A stretch of DNA of 64,000 nt, taken from Octopus vulgaris. Taxonomy: Eukaryota. Below are positions 7,739 through 62,922 of this stretch, in pieces. A model generated the notes under the pieces. That model was not told the origin of the DNA, did no database searches, and saw only the letters and a program-made list of their open reading frames with translations. The position numbers and the translations under genes were made by a program. The stretch spans positions 131,440,001 through 131,504,000 of the forward strand of contig OX597815.1 in the NCBI GenBank assembly GCA_951406725.2, read 5' to 3'. Each line of letters opens with the position of its first letter. The stretch's first letter is position 1.

Positions 7739-8074
7739 ATATATATATATAATGAACGGTACTACAAGTAGTACAAGTATGCTAAAAATAGCAGTGAAAA
7801 CAACTCAAAACCACAGTTTTCACTTGTACACAAGGGGAAATCAAGAGAATGAGTAGTAAAATTTTAAGACCCCTGTACCACAGACGAAAGGAATGGAAAA
7901 TGGAAACCAGACATATCCATATTACAGTGATTTCAAACTTTGTAAATGATCACTCTGTTATCGTCAGTGAATAATGCTAATCCAGGGCCAAAATCAGGCC
8001 CGCTTTGTCCATGTGCTCGATAATCATTCTTAATGCCGCTGAAAATTTAAAAAGATATATATATACATATATAT

Positions 8075-26577: not shown

Positions 26578-33820
<7,243 letters not shown>

Positions 33821-38010: not shown

Positions 38011-38698
38011 TATAAAGCTTCTGATGAACCACTGTCAAATTTCTTTTAATGTCCATTCACTTTATTTGAATAATGGTGAGAGCAAAGAGATGTGGTAAAC
38101 ACCGAATAATTGTCGCTTTCGTACTCCATGCATAGAGTGTATAATTGACATATAAATGACCATAACGGAATTAGTACATAACATAAATTGAAATTAGACA
38201 ATTTTATAAACTGTTAAATAATTCTTATAACATACATATGCAAAGAAGGGACTGGCAAGATCATCTTGGTTTTCGAAGCACTAGGTTTGAAGACTAAGGA
38301 TAAACTTGCAATGAACTTAGCTATATAAAGCATATTCATATCTATATACGCGCGTCTGTTTCTCTGATATTTTTTCTTGGCAGGGAGTATGTCAATTACA
38401 TCGACCCTTATGCTTAAATAGTACTGTTTGGTTGATCTCTAAAGGATAAAAGGTAAACTTGACCTCGGGAAGTAAAAATGCACGAAACGATGCTAACAAG
38501 TTTGCCCAACGTAATAAGGATTGTGCCAGCTCGGCGCATTAACTGCCTTGTAAAACAATATCAATGTTATGTGGTATGATACGTCCATTGTCACACAAAC
38601 GTATATTTAGAGACACTTTTCTGGATTAGAAACACGGCATCAAATAAAATCACATAATACACTATATTTCAAAATGACACACACACACAGCCACACAT
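38011..38698 (+). repeat. Probable donor copy of the 688-bp duplication
   Basis: Near-identical to 34653-35340, runs on into ordinary flanking DNA, and contains a decayed minus-strand family A SINE (about 38378-38543). Confidence 0.95.
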
Positions 38699-38819: not shown

Positions 38820-41200
38820 AGAAAACATCTAACACCGCTAACACAGACCCAAAATAAGAAAACAAAAATTATAAACCTCTCTAGCAAAACACTGACACCA
38901 ACCCAAATCAACATCCTAGCAAGAGGTTCGAAATTCACACCCACCCCAAGAACACCCGGAGGTCAAGGACGACGTTTCTGAATTCTGCAGAAAACTTCGT
39001 TTAACAAGACGCTCTGACAGTTCTCAACAATGAGGACGATTCATTGATCAAAAACAAAAGTAACTTCCTACCATCAAAAGGAAGAAATAAGGCACTGAAC
39101 GATTTTTGCAAACACATCCAAAGTCTCCCCTTTACCCCAGGCAAAACCATGGCAAAATCCAACTTCAGTAGGGAGGAATGGAAAAACCTACGTGACCTAC
39201 ATCTGGACAAAAACCTTACTATCAAAGAAACCGACAAAGGGAGTTCTGTGGTCCTTATGGACACGGAGGTTTATAAACACCTAGTGCTTTCCATGCTAAA
39301 CAACAACACTTTCTATGAGGTTATTAACAACTATAAACAACAAAAAACAATCAAAAACCTTACCACCCTCATACTCCAACACGGTCAGGGACTCAGAAAA
39401 AGAAAGGGATTATATCACCAATTTCAAATGCAAGCCTAGACTTTTTTATGGCCTTCCTAAAGTCCATAAAAACAAATACATCACCGAAGCCTGCAAACTC
39501 TTCTCTGACATCCACATCAACATCAAAGCACCGGAGGACCTAAAACTAAGGCCCATCGTGGCTGGCACCTCCTGTGAAACACACCGCTTGAGTAATTTCC
39601 TAGACATCCTTTTGAAACCTTTCCTTACTGACATCAAAAGTTTCATGAGGGATGATCTGGACATGCTCAAACACCTCCCGAAAACAGCTAACGAGGAGGC
39701 ACTCCTGGTGTCCTTTGATGTCATCAACCTCTACACCAACATCCCACATGAATATGGTATTGAGGCAATTGATTTCTGGCTAGAGAAACACCCAGAGGCA
39801 TTCCCTGACCGCATTCACAAGACCTTCATTACGGAATCACTCAAGTTCATTCTGACAAACAATTATTTCCTCTTCGATAACACACACTACCGTCAAAAAT
39901 GTGGTATTGCGATAGATACCAAGGCTGCACCAGTCCTTGCGAACCTCATAATAGGCTTCTTCGAACTATCACTCTATGAGATATCACGCCAGAAATGTGG
40001 ACACGTTTTCTACATCTACCTAATGGAAAACTGGAAAAGGTATTTGAATGATTGTTTCATCATATGGAAAGAATCTTATGAAAAGCTTCTGGAATTCAAA
40101 ACCATACTGAATAACATACACCCCAACATCCAATTCACTATAGAATTCAGCAAACATCATCTCCCTTTCCTTGATCTCCTAATTATAAAAACACCTAACA
40201 ACCAAATCATAACAGACATCTACCACAAACCTACAGACTCACAACTATACCTCCTCTTTAGCTCCTGCCACCCAAAACACACCAAGATAAATATCCCTTT
40301 CAACTTAGCTAAAAGGGTATGCACCATTGTCTCGGATCCCAAAACTCGTGAAATACGCCTTCAAGACCTCAAAAAAACACTATTACAATGCCAATATCCC
40401 TCCACCCTTATAGTGTATGGAATAAAACGTGCCAAAGAACTAGACAACAATACACTGAAAACCACCCAACCCAACAACACACACAATCCCAAATTACTTC
40501 CGTACATTTCCATCCACAACCCCAAAAATATCGAAGCATATACCACAATCATACAAAACCTCACTCTACTGTCCACAGACCCAAAAATGAATAACATTAT
40601 CAATACACATAAAATCCTCAAATGTAAAAGGCAACATAAATCTTTGAAAAAACTCTTGACAAATGCCAAACTTCACACACCACATCCACCCCCATCAGTT
40701 AAAAAATGTGCACGCTCAAACTGTGGCACCTGCTCCTTCCTACTTGAAGGCTCTGAATTTATTTTCAAACAAAGAACAAAGTTTAAAATCAAGACCAACT
40801 CCTCCTGTTCTTCCGAGAACGTTCTCACATGCGCCGGTTGCCAACGTAATTATGTTGGGCAAACGAGCCTCCCTTTACGTAAAAGAGTAGCGGTTCATAA
40901 AGAACAAATAAATCTCACAGAATACCGTCAAATTCCATTAAGTAGCCACATAGACTCGTGCGCTAAAGACAAAAGTCCCAGATTTTACATATTCCCCTTC
41001 TATTAATGTAAAGACGGAATCACTACACAAGAAAGAATTAACAAGGAGAATCTTTTTATTGAAAAATTCAAAGCGCATCTTAATATGCAAACTCCACGAT
41101 GATCATACATCTTTTTTCTACCTCATTCTTCACGGATGGACTAATACAAATATATAAGGATATCATGCAGTTATCACTTCAAGCTAAAAATTATATTCTT
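38820..41200 (+). mobile_element. Penelope-like retroelement (RT plus GIY-YIG), near complete, inactivated
   Basis: IINLSSKTLT...KFTPTP, TIKETDKGSSVV, FYGLPKVHK, LRPIV, SFDVINLYTNIP, RYLNDCF, LPFLDL, CARSNCGTC, CAGCQRNYVGQT...R...H. The Cys-rich linker before the endonuclease suggests the Neptune group (inference). Confidence 0.92.
39315..41006 (+). pseudogene. Penelope-type RT / GIY-YIG ORF remnant (563 aa open)
   Basis: Longest ORF in the window. The RT catalytic motif reads YLND instead of YxDD, the N-terminus is frameshifted, and a stop at 41004-41006 precedes the last endonuclease residues (ERINKENLFIEKF...LN). Confidence 0.88.

Positions 41201-41262
<62 letters not shown>

Positions 41263-42779: not shown

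Positions 42780-42782
<3 letters not shown>
41263..42782 (-). mobile_element. 5'-truncated R4/Dong LINE (copy 4, same family as copy 1)
   Basis: Reverse complement aligns closely to 29320-30800 (MHHPKSDIERLY...IQKIALLGTAHILR); flanked by (TTA)n at about 41207-41262 and 42781-42850. Confidence 0.93.
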
Positions 42783-43685: not shown

Positions 43686-43760
43686 CTTATTTAGAGATAG
43701 TAGTCCCCCTTCATCACACCATATATATAATTTTAATTTAATACTTACTACTCATTTCTC

Positions 43761-43854
43761 AGCTATAGGTGTTTCTTGAGGTTCTTTTACGGTTCCTTAA
43801 GCACGCAGTGTTTTACAGGAACCTTTCTTAAAATGTAACCCCAATCATCAGGCT
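43761..43854 (-). ncRNA. Type I hammerhead motif, left arm (stem III disrupted)
   Basis: agc-CUGAUGA-ttggggtt...aacctcaa-GAAA-caccta-UA-gct. Confidence 0.55.
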
Positions 43855-44439
43855 TCTAAATAACTTCGATACCAAATACTATATTTGAATTTTAACAGAT
43901 AAGTATGTGTATGTGTAAATATATGTTCGCCGAGCTTACGCCGTTGAGCCGAAATTAATACGTAGTAGGACCAGGGTAGTCGACGGTAGTTTGTACATAA
44001 TATTTACGACATTTCTTTTACGTTACCTTTAAGTTATTAAGCTCCAATTTTTACTTAGTAAATCTTAAATTTTTATCATTCGTATCATTTGTAAATTTTC
44101 GTTTTGCATTTTGTCATTCGTACTTGTGTATGTCCACTTTTAACTATAGTTTTTATTCATTTGTCACTGGTTTCATTATTACATGATCACAAGTATATAT
44201 TTTATTTTTATCTCTACATATTATTAATTTTATATGAATGTTTACAGACACAAGTTACGAGAGAATTTAGTTTTTGTAATTTTTTATTTTTTATTTTTTA
44301 TTTTTTTTTATTTTTTACTAATTTTATTTGAATTAAATTATGGCTTGCACAGTAAGGTCCGGCGTATCTATTTACACATACTTATCTGTCAAAATTAAAA
44401 TACAATATTTGGTATCGAACTATGATAAAGTTATTTAGA

Positions 44440-44534
44440 GGCCTGATGATTGGAGGTTACAGTTTAAGAAAGATTCCTGTAAAACACTGCGTGCTTAAGG
44501 AACTGTAAAAGAACCTCAAGAAACACGTGTAGCT
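44440..44534 (+). ncRNA. Type I hammerhead ribozyme with extended stem II
   Basis: ggc-CUGAUGA(44443-44449)-ttggaggtt...aacctcaa-GAAA(44520-44523)-cacgtg-UA-gct; palindromic stem III; predicted cleavage after GUA at 44531. Confidence 0.75.
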
Positions 44535-44639
44535 GAGAAATGAGTAGTAAGCATTAAATTAAAATTACTTTTTTATGGTGTGATGAAGGGGACTACTATC
44601 TCTAAATAACATATATATTTCCTCATTGAGAATAATTTG

Positions 44640-44890
44640 AACCCCTGTGATGCCGGAAGGTTATTTTTATGGAGAACCAGCAATCGCCCATGCATATGAG
44701 CCTCCCCTATTCACACCATTGAGGCAAAGCCTAATACAGCCTGGCTCAATTGACGTTGCAGCTCATTTCTACAGTTCAGTCAACCGGAGCAATGAGAAAT
44801 AAAGTGTCTTGCTCAAGAACACAACAGAAAGCCCGGTCTGGGAACCGATTTTACTGCCCTCATGATTGTTAACTCGACACTAACCACTCA
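44640..44890 (-). mobile_element. Degenerate SINE (family C-like)
   Basis: ggagcaatgagaaataaagtgtcttgctcaagaacacaac...ccggtctggga; homologous to 5560-5770. Confidence 0.55.
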
Positions 44891-45139
44891 ACTAAGCATA
44901 TATATATATTTGTGTGTATGTGTGTGCGTGTCTGTATCCTAATATCAATTAATGAGTTACACAAGAACATGAAGTCTCTTTGGAGGCGTACAGAAAGACT
45001 GGCACTGACAGAAGTACATTAAGCGTTTATACTGATTGTTTTTCTTTCCTAGTAATATCTCTTAATGTTCTTCATATTGGTGTGTTTTAAGCCTTAATTT
45101 AGCCTTTGTTCACGATAAATCTACTGCAGATTTCTACTT

Positions 45140-45290
45140 TAAAGCCTGTCTTTATCAAATCTACCGAATGACACTCAAAACTTTGGTCAGCTAGGGGTTT
45201 TATTAAAAGACATTTGCTTACAGTGCCGCGAAGCAGGACTGAACCCAAAAGTCACAATTGTGAAGCAAATTACGTATCCACAGAGCCATG
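45140..45290 (-). mobile_element. Degenerate partial SINE (family B)
   Basis: cactcaaaactttggtc...aagacatttgc...gtgccgcg...ggactgaaccc...ccacagagcc. Confidence 0.55.
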
Positions 45291-46096
45291 TGTGTAAATA
45301 CTTTTACATAAGTTGTAACAAATATGGAAAATCAACGTTCTGCAGGAAAAAAGAGACCATGAGTCACGTATTCTGAAAATTCGATCTGTAAAAAGGAGAG
45401 CAAGAAATTGTTAAGACTTTTCTAACATTCATCGTACAGCTGCACCTTATTGTTGCTTTTGTATAAATTCCAACAATGGAGTTTTGTTTCCGTATTAGAA
45501 ACCAGTATCTTCTTCCAGGAAGATATCAGAGATTTAAAAGAATGAAGCCATATTTATGTAACTATATCACAACCACAGAAGTATTGCTATCTAAAACCAG
45601 AAAATAAAGGCATGCTTTGTTATGGACGTCAGCTTCCTGCTTTACATGAATGTCGCCAGAAAATACAAAGAGACTTCAATATACCATAGTGGTAAATTTT
45701 AAATCTATTGTATCTAAGGTACAAATTCATTTTTCTTCTGGTTATTAAGAAAGGTATGTACATGGAATTTAGAATCTAGTTTATTGAAAAATGTATATCT
45801 ATAATTCAGTCTATAAATAACTAAAAAAAGGTGAGGTCGATATCTATTCCCAAAGTCTTAAAAAAAGGTATAAAAATAATCTATTCACCCATGTACAAAC
45901 CAGCTGAGTTGTATTACTTCGCTCTTCCGTTTTCTTCCCTGTCATTAACATATGTACATATACAAAAGCATACGAACGCACACGCACGCACACACACACA
46001 CACAGACATACACACACACACAGACACACACACACATATATATATATATATATCAATTCGGTGAATAATAATAATGGTATTCTTTATAAGCTTGAA

Positions 46097-46309
46097 TAAT
46101 GAGGTAAAAGAAACCAAGGCTGTATAGATATTAGAGTATTTATAGATAGAAGGTCATACAGCTGTTTCTAGAATATTAATTAATAATAATATCCCTTCAT
46201 TGGAGACGGTAAAGGGATATTATTATTAATTAATATTCTAGAAACAGCTGTAAGACCTATCTATATATGGTCTAATATCTATACAGCCTTGATTTTTTTT
46301 ATCTCATTA
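46097..46309. repeat. ~210-bp imperfect palindrome with hammerhead-like arms
   Basis: Arms are reverse complements around about 46205. Minus-strand motif at 46153-46207: gtct-CCAAUGA-agggata...tattcta-GAAA-cagctg-UA-tgac. Single-arm homologue at 57440-57550. Confidence 0.85.
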
Positions 46310-46367
46310 CGCAAAAAATTCATATATACACACGCTGACATAGAACCAACGTTGAACCCTTTATTCG

Positions 46368-46409
<42 letters not shown>

Positions 46410-47349
46410 TAGCAATAATACCCGGCGTTTCACGGGTCAAAGTAGTAAATATTCAGAGGGTCTAGTTATGTTTCAGTCTACATTACAGCAGTCCGGACCT
46501 TAATCTGTAGTGCAAAAATGAATTGGGCATTCCAATGTTTTATAGAGTTTTATTTAGGTTAAGGTTAGAGTTGACAATGCAATCTGATATCACTAAGTCT
46601 ATGACAAATAAGTGCTTGTCCGTCCATGTAGTGACTCGTGTTGTATCCCTCTCTGTATCACTGCAGCTCGGCGCCATCCGATAATGCAAAATTGTTGTGT
46701 ACATTGCAATGGTGTGTAGAGTTATATTTGGGTTTATCAGATGTAGACATAGAGAGTGAATTAAAACGTGTATTTCACAAGTGAGCATTTTTGGGGATTG
46801 GGCTGTTTAAACAATCTTAAAGTACGACCGTCATTGAAATGGGGAGAGTGATTGAATGTTGATTAGTAGTGTCATGACGTATGGGTAGTATAGACGTTGA
46901 ATGTTTGTCCACACCATTTATGTAGCAGAGCCCCCGAAACTGTCATAGCGAATGCGTTCTGTGTATCTCTGCCGTTTTCATAAGCCTCTACCAGTTAATT
47001 GGCGTAACATTGCATGCCTCCTTTCTGCTTACACATTGAATGCATTAGAAGCGCATAAGAAAACACTGATCGGTTGAAGTTACGTCCTTAAAGATGCTTG
47101 ATCGCCTCTTAAGCCATTATTGGAGTAATTATCCCTCCTATTTTTTGTAAAAAAACCTAAATGCTGCCCTGAGTGGTGTGTAACTTAATAGGTTACTGTT
47201 TGGGAAATGGGCTGACTGTGTGCTGTTAGTTTTAGAGTAAAAGCGGATGTAAAGCCCATTACACACGTCTGAGAGGATGATGTCTAAATCGGCTGTTTTG
47301 TGAAGCTGCACGTTTCCTTTTCACAGTGTAAACATTTACGAAGTCTCCT

Positions 47350-50300
47350 CCTTATACCTCTTGGTAGACAATATTTTTTCGTTCTACTCCGGGGTGAGTA
47401 AACGAAGAGGCTTTCCTTGCTTCCCACCCGGGAACAACCGACGTATAGCTGACCGTGTGAGAATGATTCATCTAAATGCAGCCCTGCCACCGATAGTGTC
47501 TGCCCCTGTGACTTATTGATTGATTTTGCAAAACATAATCTAAGCGGGAACTACAGACGGCGAAATACAAAGAGAATATCTGCACCAGGTGGAATGTGGG
47601 GGATTCTGGCTATGAAAACGTCCTCTCCTTTGCCACAACCGGAAAAATGGTGACTTCAAGAACGTACTGTATAGCCTTCTTAATAACCAAACGTATCCCA
47701 TTGCAAAGCTTTGGAGGGTCTAAATATACTCAGCAGCATGGTAGGAGACCCCGACTTTAACTTCCAGTGTATGAGGAGGCAAGCCTGGTGGGTCAAGGGA
47801 ATTAAGAAACTCTACTGGATAGTTCACTGCTTGGTCGTCGTCGGGTACATAATCAATTGACCCGTACACGTGCAGCCTTCGGGAAGCGAATGCAGCAGCT
47901 TAGCGTTGAGAGCGGTCACTGTGCTGTTTTTGGGAGCCAAAATGTCTCTTTCGGAAATCTAATTCATGTCAAGGTAGTTCCTTTGGAGATTTGGATAGAC
48001 ATGCGCTTCTAGTTCATCGGAATTAATGACAGGGGTACAGAGTGACAGTTCTCCGTTTTCATCGAGCGGAACAACACCGTTTCCGATTGACAATATGTCA
48101 GATATAAAATCTGATGCCATCTGGACACCACGAAGCTGCGCTCTCATATTTCTTTTGAGAGACAATGTTGTAACATTTTGCCACAGGGGGGGGGGGGGAC
48201 TTTAGGCAGGCTCAGACTACATCTGCCCTGGTTCCTTTGGGTATTACAAGAATCGTTTGTCGGAAATCGCCAGACAGGAGGAGAGTTATACCACCCATCG
48301 TAGCGGGGCAGTCTCTGATGTCTTGAAGAGTGGTGTTGAGGGCTTCGAGGGATCGCTTGTGGGCCATTGTGCATTCATCCCAAACTATCAGCTGACAACT
48401 CCGGAAAGCAAGCCCTTTTCAGAGGTTTTGGTGATGTTACAGGAAGGCACTTCGGATCTTGCCAAAACAAATTGTAGCTTAATGGTTGAGTGCGCTGTCC
48501 TGTCACCGTGAAGCAAAGTTGCTGCAATGCCAGAGGAGGCCACAGCTACGGATACGTCTTTCCGGTGCCTTACTTTAACCAGGAAAAGCTGAATAACGAA
48601 CGTTTTTCCAGTCCCTCCTGGTGCATCAAGAAAAATAAATACCCCCTTTTCGTTTCTGCATGTGGTCAAAGATGGTACTGTAAGCCCACTGTTGCTCTGG
48701 AAGATGCTTGGGCTCATTTTGCTGGATGTATTGATTAAGGGCTTCAGTGTCATAGGACGTTTCACGTATTAACTCTGTTGGTATTGAAGGTGTCCCGTGC
48801 CGCAATGGTTGCAGCAGCCCGTGTGTAGGTAAGGTATTACCTCCCAGAGAAAGTCTTGTTCTCTATGTCAAGTAAAGCACAGTTGTAAATGAAATCATTT
48901 TCAGCAGGCAAGCGGGTATGATGCAGTAGGGCCTGGTAATGGAAGTCTTCTAATAGGTCGTCTCTGTACTTTAACCACGGGAAATTGGCAAATGTGCAGG
49001 AGTAGAGAAAACAGAGCTCTGAGACTTTTCGGTGACTGTGTAACAGCAGTCTCCACAAGCGTAGCATCCCACTGCGCACCGTCTTCTAACAGCCCACGTA
49101 GTAAGCAGGCCTCCCTGAACGTAGCACATGTATGGCAATTCAATTGGTCGAAGGACTTTAGACCACTTACCACGTGAAGCAGCAATCGGAGGTAGAAGCA
49201 TTCTTGTTGGCCCGAGTGAATCGTGGAAATTATCAAATTTAATCTCAGGGTAATCATCAACGGCTCGACCTGACTTCCTTCGCTGCCACTCACACTTATT
49301 CCATGTGTAGTACGACGGGACTTGAGGATAAAACAGATCTTGCTCAAACAGGCCTACCTGGCAGAGTTTGAAGAAAGCCGTTAGTCTTTTGGTTGCTCAA
49401 TCAGTCGAGCAGCAGTGGAAGCGGTGAAGTACAGACACTGGCCGTTTTCAAGGTGCACTGTAAGCTGCTGGATTGGCGGATACCTTTGATGCAGTGGAAA
49501 CCCGAAAATGCGCCAGAAGGCTTCGTTATTACTTATGTACCTGCCTACTTGGTATTGTGTTATTTCATCTCGGAATCTGTCTGGTTGCAGGCCGAACACA
49601 GCAGTATCAGAGCCTTTGTTGATATACTTGCACACATATTTCATGAACTTTACAGAATTGCAGAGCTCGATGTTTATGTGAACATTAAGGCACTATCCAT
49701 CTGTTGTCTACTTCATACAGACCAACATTCACTGTGAATCCACCGTCCTCTGGATTCCTTCGTCTGTACAGAGGGCATCCATCGTGCCCAGATTGTGTTT
49801 CCTTGAGGAATTATTTTGGGTATTTCTTGCTGCAAACTGACCCTTTCATGCAAGGCGATCGAAGGTTGAATTCTCGTCTGCAGGGACCATGGATCATATT
49901 AGCCTTCACTGTCTCAAAGAGGGTCCTGTCGATAACGGGGTCAGGGAACTCGGCTGAGATCAAATTGTCAATTGCATCGGATGCAATCCATGTGGACAAA
50001 TTAGAATATGAGCACGAGGAAGACCCCTTTTCTGTCGCATCGCACGGGGCCAAATATTTGGCCTTTGGAGATGAAGTTCATGAGTTTGTGTAACTTCAAG
50101 TGGAAGACCCGCGCAATGAGATCATGTCTGTCTTTGGCCTGCTGACGTTGAAAAAGTTCTAATACAATCCCCCTATCACCTAGGATTACAAGTGAAGGTA
50201 ATAAGTCAGGACGCCCGTAGTAGCAGACGTATGTCATTGCATCTTGAGTTCTTTCGAACATGTAACGTGGGCCGCCGGTGAAAGATAACGGCAAGATGCG

Positions 50301-51835
50301 CACCTGATCCAACCTTCCGGGTGATACGTCATTACTGAGACCATCCCACAGATGGATATAGCCGTCTGATCGAAGTTTCTTCTGGTTAGACCTGATATAG
50401 AATAACCTCTTAGATTCCATTTTTGCCCAAACATCCACGGCAAATTGGTGGAACAGGTCGCACGATCGCTGGAGGTGGTTAGCGCATTCGTGACGGAGCA
50501 CGAAGTGTTATGAGTAGAACTGCATGCACCAAACCTATTTGGAACTCCTTTCGTTTTGTCTGCGCGGCACCCGCTGGTGAAGACCCAGATGGTAGCCATC
50601 TTCTCTGCGCACAAAAAGAAATGGATACTGGAGCGGGTTGTATGCTCTGTGTGTCTCGTTGATGCGCTTTACAGTTTGGTCACGGCACGAAAGGACAATG
50701 CTTCTGTGTTTATGCTGTTCACCACCGAGCACAGTGGCATCTTCGTTCAAGTTCGGCGTGTTTGGTAGTCAACGATAAAGTACACCTGGAGGAACTGCGG
50801 TGTTTCGTTGGCAACAGGTAGAAGGGGTCCAATTCTGTGGTAAATATGCCCCTGAATTTTAAATGTAGGCATGATGCCGCCTTCTCGAACGATATTCGTA
50901 CCAAATGATGTCATCTGAAAGGCGCAGTTATACTTTCTCATGTTGCTCCAGAAGTGCCGGCATTCGTTGTCTGCACCTGTTAAAAGATATCGCAATGGCT
51001 CAGGTGAGTTATCCAAAATGGGAAGGAGGACTTTTCCATTCGAACAGTACATGCCAGATGGTTCTCCAGGCAATTTCCTTGCATTGCAGAAGGGGCAAAC
51101 TTTTCCCATAGAGGAAATCATCAAGTTGGGGTGGTGAGCGTAATCACGATCATGTTTATAATCGAACGCTGCCCTTGACCATCGTGTACTACACGGAACA
51201 GATAGACCCTGCTGGGGGGTTCGTAGGACGGCAGAAGCTGCAAGGCGGCTTTGTCTTCCTTCATCGGCTTCGGCATTTCGAACACTAGCTGCAGAGGCTG
51301 CGTTGGTGGACCGTCGATGAGCACGTTGCTGTTCAGATTCCTTAGCTCGCGCGGACGCAATTGAAGCAGCATTACATGACCGCCGTCGTGAATGCTGTTC
51401 TGGTGTTTCAGCAGCTCGGGCAGACGCTGTTGAGGCTGCGTTGGTGGACTGTCGTTGAGCACGTAGCTGTTCAGTTTCGGCAGCTCGTGTGGAATCCCTT
51501 GATGCTGCATCATGGGACGGGCGTAGTGCTCGTTGACCTTCAGTCGTATTAGCCCGGGTAGCAGCAGTCGCAGGCTACGCTGTTCTTCCGTTTCAGCAGC
51601 GCGGGTGGCAGCCATTGTGGCAGCATTTCGAGATCTGCGATCAGCGCGCTCGTGCAGCAGCTTGTGAAGCTGTTTTGCGTAGCCGACGAATGGTACGCCA
51701 GTAGTTGAATGGGGATACAGGTGACACCGATAATGGATGGTTACTTGTTCCGTCGGGCTGACTGCTTGGCCTCCTTGCTTGTCGAACAGCTTCTCGTGTT
51801 CTTCGTCCGACGAAAGGTCTTTTCTTTGGAGGCAT
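47350..51835 (-). pseudogene. Helitron RepHel (HUH Rep plus PIF1-family helicase), heavily frameshifted
   Basis: MPPKKR start; RAAETEEQR-type repeats; CPFCNA...CSNGKV; YGRPDL; QKRGLPRAHIL near 50003-50035 (HUH first His changed to Arg); KYVCKYINKGSD; FLDAPGGTGKTF; ASSGIAATLL; HGQLYVGCSRV. Confidence 0.92.
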
Positions 51836-53114
51836 TTACCTAGAAAGAGAGTGTAAGAGGGGCAGAAATAACGGAAAGTCTTAATAAAGCGGAGTTAATG
51901 AGCAATTGCACACAATGGGTAGCAAACGTTTAAACTGTAAAGGGTATATCTTTGAAAAAGGAAAGTAAGCGAAAACCGAATGGTGGCTATGACCAATTTA
52001 CTGTGAGGGAAGTAGGTGGAAGGCAGAGTAATCGGACGGTTGAATGTGTTTCTGAAATGTGCGATTCACAGCACTGTCTCAACCAGGAGGACTTCTGAGG
52101 AAGTTTTCAAGAAGGTTGTTTGCTTGTAGAAGCGAATGGATGAGTTGCTGCGACAGGGAAATCGATCCCGTATGTCAAATAACCAGGAGGGACAGCTGAA
52201 CACGTGCATAACGGAATGCCTAATTGACCGAGGTACGAGAAGGGGGTGTGTTACGCAATGGAGATCGTATCATGGTCGAACTGCAGTAAGTGGCTGACAC
52301 ATCAACGGTAACCCGTTAACGCCGGTCTGCCTTTTCCGCGGTGGGAAATGCGTAATTCTGTAGTATAATGTAGCCCAGGGTCTCCTCAAGGAAAAGATTG
52401 CAAAGAGAAATAAGACATGGAACGGAAGCCAGAAAGCAGCTTGACCCTGCTCTAGGACGTTTGAGTGTAACATGGGTGCCGTAGCAGTCGTAAGTATAGT
52501 TAGTAGCGGTTTTACCACTGAGTCTAACCTAAAATTGATTGTTGGAAGAAACTACCGAAAATCCCATGAAACGTCAATACATAAATACTGCACTTTTTTG
52601 CTGATTCTATAGTGTATCGAGCTAAGTGCAATGTAAATCGGTACATGGGCATTAGTTGAGTTCAAATATCGCCCTGACTTCGTCCACTTTGAATGCAGTA
52701 AGTAAAATCGCAGTATTTTCATTGTCGAAGTTTCTATAAGTAGGTTTCAAAACCTTGAAGTGTTTTTCAACGCGGAAACGCAGTGATCCCCGTCTAGGAA
52801 TGAACAGTGTCTAAGAATGGATTTGGGTGCACAATTTTAAACATTGGACTTGGCAAGAACTAAAAAGTTAGTGCTCCAAATGGCGTAGTTTAGCATTAGT
52901 ATGTTTGAATAAAAGTTTGGCAAGGGAAGTTTCTAACGTAGTAGTGCACTGAGCCCGGCAAAGGATAACTTTTGCTTAATTAAATGCGCCATGTTACGAC
53001 CTAATGGCCATAACCCGAATTCACAGAATCAATGTAGACAGTGTGAATTTAAAACAACACTACACCATGAATGTTTTGTAAAACTATTATTAATCGTCAA
53101 CATAAAAACAGCTT

Positions 53115-53146
<32 letters not shown>

Positions 53147-53438
53147 AACAGCCAAAGCTACACCAAGCCTGCAGTCAAAAGTTACAAGGGTAACATATAT
53201 ACACAGTTCAGAAGTTCAGACTCCATATCTTAGTTTTTCAAAAGTAGCCTTCCAAAAACTTTGGGTTTCATAAAATGCTGATTTCCAGTTTCGTAATCAT
53301 TTGGTTTTCAAACGTCGGATTTCGACAGTGGATTTCGAACCGTGACTTCATAAAATCTGTGTATCAATTCGGCGTTCAACCTTGAGTTTCGAACCTTGGA
53401 ATGTAGAACGTTGGATTTCGATATGATATAGAAAATAT

Positions 53439-53782
53439 TTTAACTGACAAGCAAAATTTCTGGCAAATTCCTGGAGCATAAAACAATTTCACAAGTGCTT
53501 AACACATAGCACAAAATGCAGAAACTAAACAGGCAATCACAGCTTCCAGAATCCAATTGAAATTTGTCTCACAGAAAAACTGTCACCAAAACTGGGTGTA
53601 CAATTATCTCACACACCCTGCCACAATGCAGGATTCAAAGTTCACGTGCGACAAATTATTTTAAAACTGACCGGCAAAAAGTTTTGGTGAATTCCTGGAG
53701 CATAAAATATTTCCACAAATGCCTAACACAAAGTTCAAAGTGCATAAACTAAAACAGGCACTTACCGCTACCAGAATGCAAT
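53439..53782. repeat. Diverged direct repeat (~115 bp, two copies ~220 bp apart) in the Helitron 5' region
   Basis: aactgac...aattcctggagcataaaa...aacaggca...ccagaat.caat at about 53440-53556 and 53660-53782. Confidence 0.75.
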
Positions 53783-54730
53783 AGAACAAAACTGTTCTGC
53801 GGGGTATGGGAGGGGGGGGGGTAAAATTATGTATATTTATAACGTTTTTCCAGTGAGTAGCCGATTCGTCATAGTTTCTGGGGCTAATAATTATAGCGTC
53901 CCCCATTTAATAATGGACGTCACCATTATAGTGCAGCATAAAAACGGTTTTTCCCGTTTACTTTAATGTCAAACATCATTATAGGACCTGGGTTCGATAC
54001 CCGGAATCTCTACTATTTTTTAATTTCATAACAGCCAAAAGTGTCAATAGGGTGAGTAGGGGTGAAAAATAGTGATGATGTGCGCCTTGTCTCTACCCGC
54101 TAAGTAACATGATATGCAGCAGCTAAGGCGTATGGTTAACGGACAAGCTATTGCAAACAGTATTAGGGCTTCAAAAACTTTGACTTGATTTTTTACAACT
54201 AACCACCGCTATGGCCCTCGTCTAAGAAAGCCTATTGCTCAATGTTACGCATGGAACTTGCAAAAAGTATGGAACATGGGTTCTTTTGCTGTTTTTCTTC
54301 AAAGTAAAATGTGTAACGATATATTGACTAAACGCTCGGCAACTGGTTTTTTAAAGGTAGCATTACATTGAACTCTGGCAAGAAAAGGGTAAGTGCTTCA
54401 TCTACTGGGCAAAAAAAAAACGTGTCAAAAGGGTAAGTAGAGGTGCAAAACGTGTTGGTGCATGAGTCATTTTACTCTCTCCCCCCAAAATAACACATTA
54501 ACGTGTAAAACATAGCGATTAAGGCGTGAAAAGTAATTCAGCAACACATGTGCGTATAAGGTAACTTTATGTCTGTGCCCCCTATCATGCGTGCAGATCA
54601 CGGGGGTAATTTTTTTGCCATGACCTAGCTCTGACCTTATGGAATATGTGTACAAAATGTGAGGTCAATCGGACATTGAATGTGGATTTCTATAAAAAAA
54701 CATAAATGTCTACACACACATAGACACATT

Positions 54731-54776
<46 letters not shown>

Positions 54777-56608
54777 CAATTTTATATATATGTTATAGAT
54801 AGTAAGAAGAAAACAGAGATGAAAAAATCTAGGTAGATATCAATAAAGCACTCAGTCTTAAACGAATTTGCTTAACTATAACCAACAATCATACGCCAGT
54901 ATACGTTTTTTGTATATACACACACATACGCACACATGTATGTATGTATGTATGTATACCTATGCACACAGACATGCCAATGTCCTAAGTCCAGTTAAGA
55001 TGAAATCTAATTATACAGTAAAACACATATGATCGAGATTCAAAGTAAATAGTTATGGATTTTAATTAAAATCATTTAAAACCTCTAAAGTTTGCTTGGA
55101 AAAATTCTTAACAATAAGTGTATCCGAATCAATATCTAGCAAAATAAAAAGAACAAAATAAATCTCAGTTGGGAATCTTAAAAATAAATTTTCTTTCTTT
55201 TAGCAGATCAAGAATCTGGTTATTAATTCAGCATCTGTTTCTATTATTATGTAATCTATTTTCTCTTGTAGTATTGATTTGATAATGAAATAATACAGAA
55301 ATAAAAATAGAAATAATCACTTTGTGGAATACAATAAAAGGCCGTTGTAAAAACTCCTGAGTAATCCTTTGTTAACTCGTAAAACACAACGTGTCAAATT
55401 ATTTTTATGGTTAAAACAGTAATCTTTTGTATCACGTAGAATGAGTCCAATCTAAATAACAATATTATTCTCAATTGCATAAAATAAAAGCCAGTTCAAA
55501 TTTTGGAAATCTGATCACACGTTATGAAATGAATGCAAGAAAGATTTGTGGCAGGTTTCAGGAAATTTCAGTTTTAGAGCTGGAAGAATTAAACAGAAAA
55601 AGAAATGACAGGTTCCGTTTTCTTTTACATCACTAAATGTGTTTTGACATTGATTAGAATTATTCATGGTTGCTATGCATTAAGTTTTAGAGAATGAAAA
55701 AAGATTCGAAATAACAGCAAGAGAGTAGGAATTTCATAATATTCTCTGAAAGATAAAATTCAATCATTGGAACTCGTTATTTTAAAAGTACTTTTCTTCT
55801 ATTTTTCCGCTTATCTCTTAGAGAAAATGTGGGTGAGACAACAATATTGATTTGTGGCATGTACCTGATATGTCGGATATTACAGAAAAGTCGAAATTAA
55901 GATATTTGATTATCAGATTTTTCTTAAGTCTAATATTTATGCAAATGACAGAATCCTTTTCAGTCAAGAAGCGAAATTAAATTCCAATATTCAACTAATG
56001 TCAATTTAACATATACTGTGAGCAGTTCGCCTCGAAGTAATTAAATGTCTTGCTCTATATATTTTGATATTCCTCAAATAATCTTTCTACTGTTTGAATT
56101 TTCAGTTGAAATTTCAATGTTTAATAGGTGAAGGACTCTCATCAAATAAAACTAGGTTATATATAATTTGACTGGGAGATGATATAACTGTAAGGATAAA
56201 AGAAATCCGTATAGCTTCGACCTCAACAGTATTATATAATTAGAATGGTATTTCAATTTGTTGATCCAAGGTGAACTCACTTGCGTGATTGACATAAAGT
56301 GCTTCACCACAACTTCTCAACTCTGACCTACGGTCAGTCTTATCTTTCTACCTTTTCTGTCATTATTACAGCGGTTTATTTCTGATTCTTGGAGCTGGTT
56401 AGGTTCCCTTCACATCTACTAAAAACACCCACGATCCAGTCCTCTTTCAATTTGATGGCACCGCAGATCATTTGTATGCTCAGTTAATCTCCGGTTATTT
56501 TAATCCCAAGGTCTGTCTATTTACATTCAATAGCCGGTTAATGCTCGTTGTTTCCAAACCCTAGCCTGAAAACTGAAAAAAGGATGATTAGCAATTCGTT
56601 ATATATAT

Positions 56609-56795
56609 ATAAACAACACTTATAAACAAGGGTAAAAGAAAAGATTTCAATGCCAAATATGCCGAAATAGACTTAATAATCAATAACCATATAATTTATC
56701 ACTTATAAATTATATGGTTAATGACGATTAAGTCTATTTCGGCATATTTGGCATTGAAATTTTTTTTCTTTTGACCTTGTTTATAAGTTGTTTAT
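56609..56795. repeat. ~187-bp near-perfect palindrome
   Basis: ataaacaac...ttcaatgccaaatatgccgaaatagacttaat...aaccatataatttat | ataaattatatggtt...attaagtctatttcggcatatttggcattgaa...gttgtttat; centre about 56702. Confidence 0.9.
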
Positions 56796-57439
56796 AACTT
56801 TAACCTTTAAAGGTATTTTTTTTAATATGCTGGCCAATGACAAATTTTTACTTAAACTGAGGCACTTTAATTGATATATCACCATCAACTAGAATACAGT
56901 TGAGAACTCCCAATGGATTTAATTCTAAATGGTTAAAGACTACATGCTGCATATCTTCTGAATATAAATAACTACGCCACAACTCCTTTATCTTGGCTCC
57001 CACCACTATTTTTCTTTTGCTACTCTCTAATAGGTTTAATAAGATATGCATTATTTCCTAAACTCATTCTGCAACAGATATAACATAAGGAATGTAACAA
57101 TTTAATTATTTTGGTTTCTATTATTGACGTAAATTTCTTAAAATTGTTTGTCCTTTATATTTGAAATCATCTGCAACTGAAGAGAGCAGTTTCTTTCAAA
57201 CTGATGTAATGTTTTCATTGATCGATTAATGGAGAAGCGTGAAACAGATCTAATGTATTGAAACCTGTACATTTTCGTTACTTATTTAGTTTTTCTCTCT
57301 CTCTCTCTCTCTCCCTCTTTCTCTTTATCTCTCTGAATATATATGTATAGGGAGAAGTTGTGGTTATAAGAGATAATGGTGTCATTAAGACCCAAATGTA
57401 ATATTGCGAATAATTTTTCTTAATTTTTCTTCTCACATC

Positions 57440-57491
57440 GTCTCCGATGGAGGGATATTATTAATTGATATCCTAGAAACAGCTGTAAGAC
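57440..57491 (+). ncRNA. Minimal type I hammerhead-like motif (variant core)
   Basis: gtct-CCGAUGG-agggata...tatccta-GAAA-cagctg-UA-agac; stems I and II and palindromic stem III pair; same family as 46097-46309. Confidence 0.55.
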
Positions 57492-57553
57492 CTATCTATA
57501 AATGCTCTAATATCTATACAGCCTTGGTTTTTATCTTATTACGCAGAAAAATT

Positions 57554-57594
<41 letters not shown>

Positions 57595-57651
57595 GTGTGT
57601 GTGCATATATGTGTGTAAATTTATACGTATATATACATACATATATATATG

Positions 57652-57726
<75 letters not shown>

Positions 57727-57908
57727 TAAAAGAAAAAATAAGTTCAAGTAGAACAATTCAAAAGTTTTTGAGTAGTCCAAAAAGAGAGAAAATAATTTCT
57801 AATAAAAATTCAAATACAGAAATATCCTGCTAGACCAAGCAATAAGAATAAGAAAACAATTGTCTATGGTACATTTGTACCTATGACGAACGTCTTCAGT
57901 ATTTTATA

Positions 57909-57948
<40 letters not shown>

Positions 57949-57949
57949 T

Positions 57950-58170
57950 TCTTTTATTCTTTTAGTTGTTTCAGCAATTTGTTTGCGTGATTGTGACCAT
58001 GCTGGAGCACCGCCTTGAGTCGAGCAAATAAACCCCAGGACTTATTCTTTATTGGCCTAGTACTTATTCCATCGTCTCTTTTACCGAACCGCTAAGTTAC
58101 AGCGACGTAATCTGACTAACATCGTTTGTCAAGCGATGGTGGGGATCAAACACAGACACACAAATACATA
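57950..58170 (-). mobile_element. 3' half of a SINE (family B)
   Basis: Reverse complement of the family B tail (ccatgctggagcaccgcc...ccgaaccgctaagttac...gtcaagcgatggtgggg). Confidence 0.8.
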
Positions 58171-58178
58171 CATATATA

Positions 58179-58232
<54 letters not shown>

Positions 58233-58298
58233 CAAGGAAAAATTATAAAGAGGCAGAATGCTAAATTGAATGTAAATTTTAATGAAAATGGGTGTGTG

Positions 58299-58332
<34 letters not shown>

Positions 58333-58336
<4 letters not shown>

Positions 58337-58374
58337 CAAACCGGTTTTCGTCGTAATGCGACTTTTCAAGAATT
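58333..58374 (-). ncRNA. Hammerhead-like motif with variant core UUGAAAA
   Basis: aattc-UUGAAAA-gtcg(catta)cgac-GAAA-accggt-UU-gaatt; 58228-58395 is homologous in reverse to about 43355-43515. Confidence 0.5.
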
Positions 58375-58388
58375 GTAAGGTGAAAAGA

Positions 58389-58420
<32 letters not shown>

Positions 58421-58424
<4 letters not shown>

Positions 58425-58808
58425 GCTCTGTGGTAAGTAGCTTGCTTACCAACCACATGGTTCCGCGTTCAGTCCCACTGCGTGGCACCTTGGGCAAGTG
58501 TCTTCTACTATAGCCTCGGGCCGACCAAAGCCTTGTGAGTGGATTTGGTAGACGGAAACTGAAAGAAGCCCGTCGTATATATGTATATATATATGTGTGT
58601 GTTTGTGTGTCTGTTTGTCCCCCTAGCATTGCTTGACAACCGATGGTTGTGTGTTTATGTCCCCGTCACTAAGCGGTTCGGCAAAAGAGACCGATAGAAT
58701 AAGTACTGGGCTTACAAAGAATAAGTCCCGGGGTCGCTCGATTAAAGGCGGTACTCCCGCATGGCCGCAGTCAAATGATTGAAACAAGTAAAAGAGTAAA
58801 GAGTAAAG

Positions 58809-58810
<2 letters not shown>
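58421..58810 (+). mobile_element. Full-length SINE (family B)
   Basis: A-box-like gtggctctgtggtaag, B-box-like gttcagtccc, internal (TA)/(TG), tail gaaacaagtaaaagagtaaagagtaaagagt; within (TA)n. Confidence 0.92.
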
Positions 58811-58859
<49 letters not shown>

Positions 58860-59088
58860 TTAAAAACAGATTTGTTATATACTCTCACCTCTGTCACTAT
58901 CTGTCATATACAGGTGCTTACACTTATCAAGTATTCACTCTAAATTTACAGTACCTACTTAATATATGTATATATATATACGTATATATATTTATATATA
59001 TACATATAATGGTGGTGTATCAGCCTGACCACAGTTTTGAAGTTGAAACATTTTAAAATAATTTAAGTACATATATATATTACATACA

Positions 59089-59774
59089 TATAAGAGGGAT
59101 GAACACTAAGTGGACATCCATTATGCTAGACGTCGACCTCCTATGGTCTTACCACTAAGAAAGGAATATTTTCAAGAAAATTTAGCAAACACTAGAACGT
59201 AGGTGAGCAAGACAAATGAAAAGGTACAAAATATGCATATTAATCACAAACACGGTTTAATTGTTACCACCTACATAATCACTTACGTAGATGCCTGCAA
59301 CTCGTCAGTGTGATCGTCATAGGAAAATATAATATACACGAGACGTTCACATGAGATTGAACATGTATATAGTTCTGCCAAATGCATTTGGTTTTATATT
59401 TCAAAAGTTTTCGTTTTGGCGCGCCAAAATACCGGAAATAATTCTGCAGAAAATAATTCTCTGCAGTGAATTTTGCCGGTTAGAGAACATAGTTATTTAA
59501 GATTGCTGGCGTTTGATAAATTTTCTTGAGAAAATTCCTTTCTTAGTGGCAAGACCATACGGGGTCGACTTCTAGCATAATGGATATCCATTTAGTGGTT
59601 ATCCCACGCAGGAGTGGCTGTGTGGTACGTAGCTTGCTAACCAATCACATGGTTCCGGGTTCAGTCCCACTGCATGGCATCTTTGGCAAGTGTCTTCTGC
59701 TATAGCCCCGGGCCGACCAATGACTTGTGAGTGGATTTGGTAGACGGAAACTGAAAGAAGCCTGTCGTATATAT

Positions 59775-59814
<40 letters not shown>

Positions 59815-60660
59815 TTGTGTGTCTGTGTTTGTCCCCCTAACATTGTTTAACAACCGATGCTGGTGTGTTTACGTCTCCGTAACTTAGCGGTTCGGCAAAA
59901 AGAGACCGATAGAATAAGTACTGGGCTTACAAAGAATAACTCCCGGGGTCGATTTGCTCGACTAAAGGCGGTGCTCCAGCATGGCCGCAGTCAAATGACT
60001 GAAACAAGTAAAAGAGTAAAAGAGTATACGTATGTAATATAATTTTTCTGAATCTTCAGATCTTTCTATATGCTAGACCACTGGTTTTAATTGATATTAA
60101 TCAAATTAATATTCAATTTTTCCCCCCTTATTATTTTAAATTTAAATTTAAAAGGCTATGTTCTCTAACCAGCAAAATTCACTGCAGAGAATTATCTTCT
60201 GCAGAATTATCTCCGGTATTTTGGTGCGCCCCCGCAAATGTAATTGGTAGAAATATATACATGTTCAATATCATGCGGATGTCTCGTGTATAGTTTGCAA
60301 ATTATATTTTGCTATGACGATCACACAGACGAGTTGCAGACATCTACAAAAGTGATTATGTAAGTGGTAACAATGAAACCGGGTTTGTGATTAATATATA
60401 TATTTTGTATCTTTTCATTTGTCTTGCTCGCTTACGTTCTGGAGTTTGCTAAATTTTCATGAGAACATCCCTTTCTTAGTGGTAGGACCATAGGCGGTCG
60501 ACTTCTGGCATGATGGATGTCCACTTAGTGGTCATACCACTTATATATATATGTAATATAATTTTTTTGAATCTTCAGATTTTACTATATGCTAGACCAC
60601 TGGTTTTAAATTGATAATCAAATTAACATTCAATTTTTCACCCTTATTATTTTAAATTTA
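59089..60660. mobile_element. Inverted plus tandem-partial terminal-repeat structure (Penelope pLTR-like), non-coding
   Basis: 59089-59492 is the reverse complement of about 60156-60545; 59515-59606 plus 60030-60150 directly repeats about 60450-60660; degenerate hammerhead motifs at 59266-59314 (minus) and 60320-60368 (plus). Confidence 0.75.
59607..60025 (+). mobile_element. Full-length SINE (family B) nested in the repeat structure
   Basis: gcaggagtggctgtgtggt...gaaacaagtaaaagagtaaaagagt; it interrupts a unit that is uninterrupted at 60530-60560. Confidence 0.92.
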
Positions 60661-61151
60661 TATATATAATATAATATAATATAATATAATATAATATAAA
60701 ATAATATAACATTATATTATAATATAATGAAGGGTAAAAATCACTATTGATATTACCAGGGGTTTAGTGCGCAAATAAAAACCATATAGGTAAATTTTAC
60801 AAATATTTTTAATAATTATATACATAATTATAACAAGGGATTGACTATAAGCCTGTCAACGCGCTGGAAACAGACGCCAAAAGACGCTACCACCACCTTA
60901 AGAACTCCGTGAATAAAAGACTGGGCTGTAGTCGGACGAAAGAAAGAGCATTACACTTTTAGCAAGCTTAAAGTAAAAGAAAATATTACTTAGTGCTCTC
61001 ATCAGCAACGATATTCCATAGTATAAATTGACGTATATATATATATATATATATGAGTGTGTGCGTGTGTGTGTGTATATACGTGTGTGTATATATATGT
61101 ATATATATATATGTATTCATATATGCATTTATATATGTATGTATATATATC

Positions 61152-61207
<56 letters not shown>

Positions 61208-61794
61208 GGAGAGAGAGAGAGACCTGTGTGTATGTGTCTTTGTGTCTGTGTTTGTCCACTACAACCGCATAATAGCTGGCGCCGGTGTGTTTACGTCTTC
61301 GTAATCTTGAAATACGGCGAAAGAGACCGATAGAAGTACGATGCTTTAACAGATAAGTACGGGGGAGGGTGCCTGAAACAAGTAAAAATTACCTGAAACA
61401 AGTAAAAAGAAAATCAAGATATAAAAGAAAAAAACTACAAAGAATTTAACCCAAGGTATTTTGTCCGACGCTTTAACAATTTAGCCGATCCACCATCCTC
61501 AAATAGTTTCTGTATGTAAGCACTTGGTAAATAATTTACTAGGAAGGACGTTAATCAATTGTATTGAGCCTAAGATTTTCCTCGTACTACTTTGTTTCAG
61601 CGTTCCCAGAGAAGGCAAAGCTGACATCAGTGGAATTTGAATGCAGAACGTAGTGAGCGGAAATTAATACTGCGAGACAATTGCCTCACCATTTTGAAAT
61701 ATCAGAACCATAGAAATTATAAGTAATAAATATTCTTAAGAATAGTGACATTGGCTATAATCTCCGCAAGGTTTATATTTTTCTAGATACGACA

Positions 61795-61854
61795 ACAACG
61801 ACGACGACGACGACAACAACAACAACAACAACAAAAACAACAACAATAATAATA

Positions 61855-61909
<55 letters not shown>

Positions 61910-61942
61910 TAATAATAACAATAATATTGATGATAATAATAA
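61795..61942. repeat. (GAC)/(AAC)/(AAT)n compound microsatellite
   Basis: Read directly. Confidence 0.92.
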
Positions 61943-62200
61943 CTAGTGGTTCTGTGATATGTGAGTCGTTTTATTTAGTATATTATAGTATATAATGTTA
62001 CTAGAAGCTTAGTAAAATGTACGAAAGAAGACGAATACAATAGCAAAAAATAAAAAAAACAAGAAAATTCCCTGTAGCCGAAATATTTCAAACTTTATGT
62101 ATACACACGAAAGGGTTATTGTTATTTCCATGCTTTTCATGTGGTTATTGGAAATAAAAGAATTATTATATATTATAGCTTTCTTTGCTTACACACTCCA

Positions 62201-62274
<74 letters not shown>

Positions 62275-62574
62275 CTTTTGTTTGCACTTCCTCCCTTATT
62301 TGTGAACAGTGTATCGTACCGTTGGTTTCCATCTTCTAGTAAAGTAAAAGTAAGAAAGAAAGTAAATTGAATAAGGAAAGAAATAGAGAGGGAAAGAGGG
62401 AGAAGAGATGAGTGAACGAGAGAAAGTGGAAGAGACAAATGGTAATAAGGTAATAGCCATTTACATTTCCTTATACGCACGCGCAAACATACAGGTACAT
62501 GCATACACATAGACCCATGCGTAAGCTATATACACAAATATATATGCATATATATAGATATATGTATACATATG

Positions 62575-62627
<53 letters not shown>

Positions 62628-62655
62628 ATATATTCATATATATATTCATGTATGC

Positions 62656-62718
<63 letters not shown>

Positions 62719-62784
62719 GGTCCCGGGTTGATTCGGGGTTAACCACAGTAAGTAAGGTACTCAATACATAGCAGAGTAAAATTA

Positions 62785-62916
62785 ATTTATTATATAGAAG
62801 GAGTTTACAGGACTAGTACTGTTTCATTCAAGAGAAATCTTCAGGAAGCTTCAGAGCTTCCTGAAGATTTCTCTTGAATGAAACAGTACTAGTCCTGTAG
62901 AAGCTCCTTCTATATA

Positions 62917-62922
<6 letters not shown>
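62785..62922. repeat. ~138-bp palindrome made of two divergent hammerhead motifs
   Basis: atttattatatagaaggag...caggaagct | agcttcctg...ctccttctatataataaat; centre about 62852; in a short element flanked by (TA)n. Confidence 0.92.
62854..62906 (+). ncRNA. Type I hammerhead ribozyme, canonical core
   Basis: Stem I gagcttc/gaagctc (7 bp); CUGAAGA at 62861-62867; short stem II ttc/gaa; GAAA at 62880-62883; stem III acag/ctgt with loop containing palindromic actagt; GUA site at 62897-62899. Confidence 0.8.

Follow-up and report, generated by a model that had tools for sequence, protein, structure and literature searches.

The closest described systems to the four fold-back elements considered here, which lie in 64,000 nucleotides (nt) of Octopus vulgaris DNA (contig OX597815.1, positions 131,440,001 to 131,504,000 of the forward strand; this whole stretch is called the window), are the Penelope-like elements (PLEs), outlined below. 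The general layout of PLEs and their bias towards microsatellites have been set out previously (Craig 2021, PMC8557442). Their pseudo-long terminal repeats (pLTRs) occur inverted, with palindromes at the junctions and mostly head to head (Arkhipova 2013, PMC3846280), and the way in which PLEs make inverted junctions is called still undefined in the relevant passage of PMC8557442. The commonest form of Penelope in Drosophila virilis is a partial tandem that has inverted repeats, variable in size, on its flanks (Fig. 1C, PMC2377424); a start site lies 46 bp before an intron whose end maps to helix I of the ribozyme (PMC2377424). PLE hammerheads have a palindromic helix III/loop 3 (PMC4209133), and dual minimal hammerheads of Schistosoma mansoni, 100-700 bp apart on opposite strands, have been read as truncated PLEs (Cervera and de la Pena 2014, PMC4209133). 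For the Poseidon element PAc of Anolis, both strands of the target were nicked and extended, AT-rich DNA being preferred (Frangieh 2024, PMC11167929), and reverse transcription started internally, ~90 nt past the ribozyme cut site, on uncleaved RNA (PMC11167929).

We analyzed the four octopus elements, labelled E1 (43.7 kb), E2 (46.1 kb), E3 (59 kb) and E4 (62.8 kb), and conclude that they are very probably ordinary PLE insertion scars, in which two 5'-truncated, hammerhead-bearing terminal repeats have been joined head to head. Three PLE traits were found in them. First, they carry type I hammerheads with a palindromic helix III or loop 3. Second, their copies combine variable 5' truncation with a common 3' end: the right sides of E1-family members start 20, 32, 100, 435 and 483 nt before the hammerhead core, and E2 and a solo sibling of it (95/103 alike) have tails that end at the same place. 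Third, an inverted 5'-truncated copy stands head to head with a forward copy, with or without a partial tandem.

Structure of the four fold-back elements

An earlier note on this DNA, made from the letters alone, had described four inverted repeats that share no obvious primary sequence and encode no protein. This description was confirmed: all four were found where it had placed them, their families align pairwise no better than shuffles (no pair at ≤4/200), and no coding remnant was detected in any of them. With gaps excluded, the arms agree at 242/261 aligned letters in E1 (43687-43959 / 44332-44609), 90/97 in E2 (46097-46208 / 46211-46309) and 357/402 in E3 (59076-59503 / 60148-60560); those of E4 (62785-62852 / 62853-62922) agree at 66/66, plus two 1-nt gaps. 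The parts of the elements and of the solo sibling are as follows.

43687..43959, minus strand: E1 left arm, an inverted 5'-truncated copy of a Penelope-type 3' end; its 5' end lies 111 nt before the hammerhead core
43764..43851, minus strand: E1 left hammerhead, helix III broken (CACCUA)
43960..44331, plus strand: E1 spacer, T-rich (187/371 T), the upstream part of the forward copy, which is the longer one; it is multi-copy and shows no remnant of coding sequence
44332..44609, plus strand: E1 right arm, as delimited by the arm alignment
44443..44531, plus strand: E1 right hammerhead, in which the core is complete, helix II is long and helix III is a CACGUG palindrome; a 3-bp helix I is followed by an internal loop and 6 bp
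46097..46208, minus strand: E2 left arm, holding a decayed hammerhead (46157-46203)
46211..46321, plus strand: E2 right arm, starting inside helix II, core absent; its outer end lies ~12 nt beyond that of the left arm
57439..57553, plus strand: solo sibling of E2, no inverted arm; its 5' start, CGTCT, is that of the E2 left arm, and it ends in (TA)n
59076..59503, minus strand: E3 inverted arm, hammerhead at 59249-59308
59505..59607, plus strand: E3 short forward partial copy, which consists of 102 nt from the 3' end of the unit, lacks a hammerhead and abuts the inverted arm
59608..60024, plus strand: repeat that we take to be like a short interspersed element (SINE), a later insert within the E3 short forward copy; 86% to 58421-58805 and others
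60025..60153, plus strand: E3 extension X, first copy, a tail or transduced flank
60148..60545, plus strand: E3 long forward copy, hammerhead at 60326-60385; its 5' end is within ~12 nt of that of the inverted arm
60544..60669, plus strand: E3 extension X, second copy, with TA-rich repeats next
62785..62852, minus strand: E4 left arm, hammerhead at ~62806-62844, helix I broken
62853..62922, plus strand: E4 right arm, complete hammerhead at 62861-62899; the fold-back centre is at the start of helix I

E3 is thus ordered as inverted arm, short forward copy split by the SINE-like insert, and long forward copy, that is, a partial tandem plus an inverted copy. The inverted arm is longer than the short forward copy adjoining it, and the 129-nt extension X is found on both forward copies, with its first ~17 nt only on the inverted arm. 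The arms of E4 are identical over 45 nt, and at its centre a near-perfect palindrome encloses a loop of 4 nt; the stretch 62716-62784 may be a one-sided tail of this element. All four elements had been said to lie in or beside (TA)n/(CA)n tracts, which holds for E1, E3 and E4 and not for E2, both arms of which end ~45-60 nt from (TA)n; as a baseline, 15% of the window is within 60 nt of such a run.

A perfect 16-nt palindrome, TTTTGGCGCGCCAAAA, which we take to resemble an E2F site, occurs in the E3 inverted arm at 59413-59428, ~110 nt before the ribozyme core, and is lost in the forward copy. Masking of simple repeats leaves five local fold-backs in the window, four with hammerhead motifs and one (56610-56796) with none. 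The fifth has arms 82/88 alike and a 5-nt loop, lies beside a short TA run, and could be a miniature inverted-repeat transposable element (MITE) or the scar of a ribozyme-less PLE clade; Naiads are described as such a clade, lacking the hammerhead ribozyme (PMC8557442).

Hammerhead motifs in the arms

A type I descriptor run over the whole window returned two defect-free motifs (E1 right, 44443-44531, and E4 right, 62861-62899) and five with at most one defect, the latter adding E1 left, E3 left and E3 right. All five lie inside the arms, which total 1738 nt or 2.7% of the window. Enrichment over shuffled controls, proposed beforehand as a check, was observed: 200 block-wise dinucleotide shuffles gave means of 0.01 (no defect) and 0.14 (≤1 defect), and none of the 200 reached the observed counts. 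The first descriptor had missed E3 and E4 through its loop-length limits and was widened once after the elements had been seen, so the shuffle test is partly post hoc; moreover, because the arms are duplicates, the five motifs represent three independent families. With two defects allowed, the descriptor is near noise (8 observed versus a mean of 3.2, with 2/200 shuffles as high), and hits at 24082 and 57177 were therefore dropped as chance.

The motifs had been claimed to face outward on both arms of each element. Their orientation is as claimed, minus strand on the left and plus strand on the right. No element has two intact motifs; a complete type I motif is present in 2/8 arms and a recognisable one in 7/8. 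The E2 right arm begins after the core, just as had been noted for the right arm at 46.2 kb, and the E2 left motif (46157-46203) has three defects, including a CCAAUGA core and a helix I mismatch, with a CAGCUG helix III. Two core defects were found in the hammerhead of the solo sibling (57444-57487). In E3, the left motif (59249-59308) reads UAAA in place of GAAA (G12 to U), and the right one (60326-60385) has a CAGACGA core (U4 to A). The core of the E4 left motif is intact, with helix I broken beside the cleavage site; the E4 right motif has a 7-bp helix I, a 4-bp helix III and an ACUAGU palindrome in loop 3. At the broken helix III of E1 left, other E1-family copies read CACGUG (43766 T>C and 43768 G>C in most of the contig depth). 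Overall, helix III/loop 3 palindromes are clean in E1 (CACGUG), E2 (CAGCUG) and E4 (ACUAGU), and E3 has a near-palindrome only. Helix III measures 2-4 bp in the motifs of the window, helix II of E1 and E3 measures 41-69 nt, and core-to-core spacing is ~590 nt in E1, <20 nt in E2 and E4, and ~1020 nt in E3, including its later insert.

Among 68 Rfam matches in the window at E≤1 there was no hammerhead family. MicroRNA-family matches, which reflect hairpins or simple repeats, did not reach the threshold; one of them is E4 against mir-3199 (70 bits). Minimum free energy z-scores of the isolated motifs were unremarkable, ranging from -1.6 to +1.3 over nine stretches, of which 59221-59300 excludes the core. 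Exact-motif scans of metagenome contigs for E1 and E4 gave 0 loci. One solo hammerhead-like motif (7920..7967, minus strand) lies outside the fold-backs, in a ~300-nt stretch between TA runs.

It had also been suggested that read-through on either strand would meet one sense ribozyme whose folding competes with a long hairpin. Structure prediction agrees with interference by the hairpin and disagrees with a balanced contest, because, whichever strand is transcribed, the antisense arm precedes the ribozyme. For E4, the predicted probability of helix I pairing falls from 0.94 for the ribozyme alone to ~1e-49 with the antisense arm, and the predicted energy is -106 kcal/mol for the fold-back, with 66/66 pairs on the fold-back, versus -12.4 for the ribozyme alone. 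Helix I pairing of E1 is predicted to be weak even alone (0.006). The ribozymes would be passengers, now decaying, and the hairpin would silence them in any read-through RNA.

Copies, junctions and probable origin

The earlier note had left two options, namely repeated truncation/inversion products of several Penelope families or a mobilised palindromic unit. To compare copies, Logan contigs of four DNA runs were aligned to E1 at 80% likeness, giving 591, 193, 722 and 637 contigs. The E1 family is multi-copy across arms and spacer; summed contig depth, which is not a copy number and is not counted as one, rises toward the 3' end. Among the joints listed, at least four other fold-back centres of the family were found, all different and none equal to that of the window, where the right side starts 483 nt and the left arm ends 111 nt before the core. 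These four are given below as last left-arm position + extra nt / first right-side position.

43841+22 nt/44411 (run X1): right side starts 32 nt, left arm ends ~12 nt before the core
43851+6/44423 (run X5): right side starts 20 nt, left arm ends 0-6 nt before the core
43921+9/44008 (runs X2, X4 and X5): right side starts 435 nt, left arm ends ~80 nt before the core
43921+9/44343 (run X1): right side starts 100 nt, left arm ends ~80 nt before the core

The depth at the four joints, 41-55 or, in the shallow run, 7.9, is that of single contigs, and one alternative joint recurs in three runs that bear two organism labels. Contigs at two of them differ by 9-11% from the window and therefore represent other loci, not alleles. 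A further contig of the family (X1) continues beyond the 5' end of the spacer into unlike sequence. Eight opposite-strand arm-arm joints were also considered; five, lying ≤5 nt from the mirror position, were rejected as mapping switches, and the remaining three are off it by 26-61 nt. Separately, at 44514-44658 a contig of about half depth in two runs joins the outer 32-34 nt of an arm to 44518 and then the right flank, and may represent an E1 allele with most of the palindrome deleted.

A fixed centre and fixed ends across loci, as expected of a MITE-like unit, are found neither in E1, with five centres at five loci, nor in E2, with its non-inverted sibling. The claim of a mobilised unit is thus contradicted for these two, and the differing centres, the solo copy and the layout of E3 support the option of repeated truncation and inversion in several Penelope families. 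That the short elements, E4 and perhaps E3, are non-autonomous palindromes of fixed centre, moved whole by a PLE protein in trans, is improbable. The identical 45-nt arms of E4 and its centre at helix I fit this idea, as does the common 5' end of the E3 inverted arm and long forward copy, which suits a short RNA of defined length, and non-coding DNA can be mobilised in trans by means of PLE cis-sequences (PMC3846280). However, besides the evidence from E1 and E2, the tail and ribozyme of a palindromic RNA would be buried as it folds back on itself, as the energy predicted for E4 illustrates, and the arm divergence of 0-11% fits single insertions of different ages. If the idea were true, E4, the youngest element, and perhaps E3 would give two outward transcripts, each carrying a ribozyme plus a tail for a further round, and would be a palindromic counterpart of retrozymes.

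Alternatively, the elements might be repeats of the animal retrozyme type, or MITE-like DNA elements that carry hammerheads incidentally, which we regard as highly improbable. They do have type I hammerheads and no coding sequence, and retrozymes are reported to be PLE-derived (bioRxiv 10.64898/2026.07.22.740005). Retrozymes, however, are arranged as head-to-tail tandems whose units, 170-400 nt long, each contain a ribozyme (PMC7229834), whereas E1-E4 have no same-strand pair and the short tandem copy of E3 has no motif; a MITE, in turn, needs fixed ends and centre, and the centres of E1 vary. For E1 and E2 this reading is largely refuted.

Under an origin as PLE insertion scars, a PLE reverse transcriptase (RT)/endonuclease would nick both strands of a TA-rich or (TA)n target. 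Either nick would then serve as primer for reverse transcription of uncleaved RNA, starting in its tail, downstream of the ribozyme. Both cDNAs would run 5' through the ribozyme and then stop, and the two truncated ends would be joined. In many copies the stop lies 0-110 nt before the core, which may reflect run-off at an RNA 5' end near the pLTR promoter or a stall at helix I. In a tally that was made by hand, is small and was selected for having a fold-back, 14 placeable 5' ends span the hammerhead or adjoin its core; 9 of them are no more than ~32 nt from the core (both arms of E2, the solo copy, both arms of E4 and four ends at two loci of the E1 family), and the other five, all of the E1 family, lie ~80, 80, 100, 111 and 435 nt before it; outside these 14, E1 right (483 nt) and the two long E3 copies (~180-190 nt) start further out. 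Such clustering near the ribozyme fits run-off after internal initiation and helix I stalling alike.

The joining step could instead have proceeded by self-priming on an antisense strand, a proposal that concerns this one step and not the family assignment, and that we consider somewhat unlikely. It has been put forward for palindromes at inverted junctions (PMC3846280), and the near-perfect palindrome and 4-nt loop at the centre of E4 would suit it. Against it, the arms of E1 and of E3 differ greatly in length, the E3 inverted arm even exceeding the forward copy beside it, and in vitro, with sense RNA as template, both strands are extended by PAc protein (PMC11167929).

A candidate for the kind of helper involved is present in the window:

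38835..41084, plus strand: decayed open reading frame (ORF) of an autonomous-type Penelope-like element, with RT and C-terminal GIY-YIG

This ORF, possibly of the helper type for E1-E4, is nearly full, with one frameshift near 39300-39400 and a 3' end cut by an inverted fragment of a long interspersed element (LINE). Pfam gave no match for it, and its identity rests on relatives, bivalve proteins among them, that have RT and GIY-YIG domains. A Cys cluster precedes GIY-YIG, a Neptune/Nematis-like feature according to PMC8557442, and neither a pLTR nor a complete hammerhead was found at this ORF. A second, older GIY-YIG PLE remnant lies at 4553-4891 on the minus strand (tblastn E 1e-5); a stretch weakly resembling a hammerhead is found near 4200-4250. 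Among contigs with autonomous PLE relatives, L001 has a complete motif 190 nt past the stop codon and ~140 nt beyond it; L002 fails the descriptor, with a core visible by eye ~150 nt past the stop. Both are animal PLEs whose contigs are assigned to bacterial genome assemblies, probably as host carry-over, and no PLE relatives were found in viral contigs.

Several points weigh against an origin as PLE scars, or against parts of it. In sequence, the arms of E1-E4 connect neither with any autonomous PLE ORF (tblastn E 0.17 at best) nor with the flanks of the ORF in the window, and only one of the two autonomous relatives passes the descriptor. The outer ends of the arms differ by 0 nt in E1, ~12 nt in E2, ~110 nt in E3 and perhaps by 70 nt in E4, apparent one-sided tails that depart from the textbook 30-40, and no target-site duplication is readable in the simple-repeat flanks of E1-E4, though these are TA-rich. 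Copy structure was examined for one family of the four, E1, with 15 of 24 joints and 32 pieces listed, in short-read contigs, which hide palindrome centres; two of the joints have the same left-arm end (43921), so the ends are not random. Finally, joining after two primed nicks is not reported in the cited passages of the PLE literature, and PMC3846280 favours self-priming on an antisense template for inverted junctions.

Window context and comparison with described systems

The window has 36% G+C and contains many TA/CA tracts and decayed mobile elements, including LINE-type RT fragments. Its largest inverted repeat (29321-30859 / 41208-42782, 91% over 1.6 kb) consists of two opposite copies of one LINE-type 3' end, bounded by (AAT)n, and a ~700-nt pure (AAT)n tract follows the LINE 3' end at 30800-31500. 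A 688-nt direct repeat of 99.9% identity (34653-35340 and 38011-38698, 3.4 kb apart) ends just before the PLE ORF and is either a recent duplication or an assembly artefact. In addition, a Helitron at ~46411-54795 on the minus strand retains Rep and PIF1 helicase remnants (Pfam PIF1 and Helitron_like_N), and its hairpin and CTAG end sit in the (TA)n tract to the right of E2.

The relevance of these elements lies mainly in repeat annotation, where scars of this kind can be mistaken for MITEs or microRNA hairpins. It is also a mild curiosity that three unrelated families have their 5' ends concentrated near helix I, and this offers a useful handle on how inverted junctions form, by two primed nicks with run-off or by antisense self-priming. 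In the literature outside subscription papers, Repbase and supplements that may list octopus families, we found no mobilised palindromic hammerhead element and none of the E1-E4 families.

Compared with the described systems, E1-E4 resemble the S. mansoni pairs in having type I motifs on opposite strands, several unrelated families per genome and a palindromic helix III/loop 3; the S. mansoni copies are also mostly solo and truncated (PMC4209133), a feature shared with the elements of the window. The source passage does not state whether those pairs face outward or inward, whereas E1-E4 face outward. Moreover, the motifs of the window keep a helix III of 2-4 bp, and helix II of E1 and E3 is much longer than in S. 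mansoni. With the unit of endonuclease-bearing PLEs they share a head-to-head inverted copy, junction palindromes, unequal arms and AT-rich or microsatellite targets, and E3, with two direct copies and one inverted, matches the D. virilis layout. Unlike the canonical unit, they have no ORF between the repeats, no readable target-site duplication and apparent tails that are not 30-40 bp. The autonomous relative in L001 and E1 have the same order of T-rich stretch, ribozyme and short tail. PAc supplies the chemistry for the proposed nicking and priming, although inverted products are not described in the cited passages of PMC11167929, and its ribozyme overlaps the start of the ORF, whereas no such ORF start can be placed in E1-E4. 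Like the animal non-LTR (long terminal repeat) retrozymes (PMC7229834), E1-E4 are non-coding repeats with type I hammerheads; retrozymes, however, are head-to-tail tandems that yield circular RNA, whereas the ribozymes of E1-E4 stand head to head on opposite strands, so that no unit is bounded by two cuts. Taken together, E1-E4 likely extend the described pattern by four unnamed mollusc families and do not represent a new kind of palindromic element.

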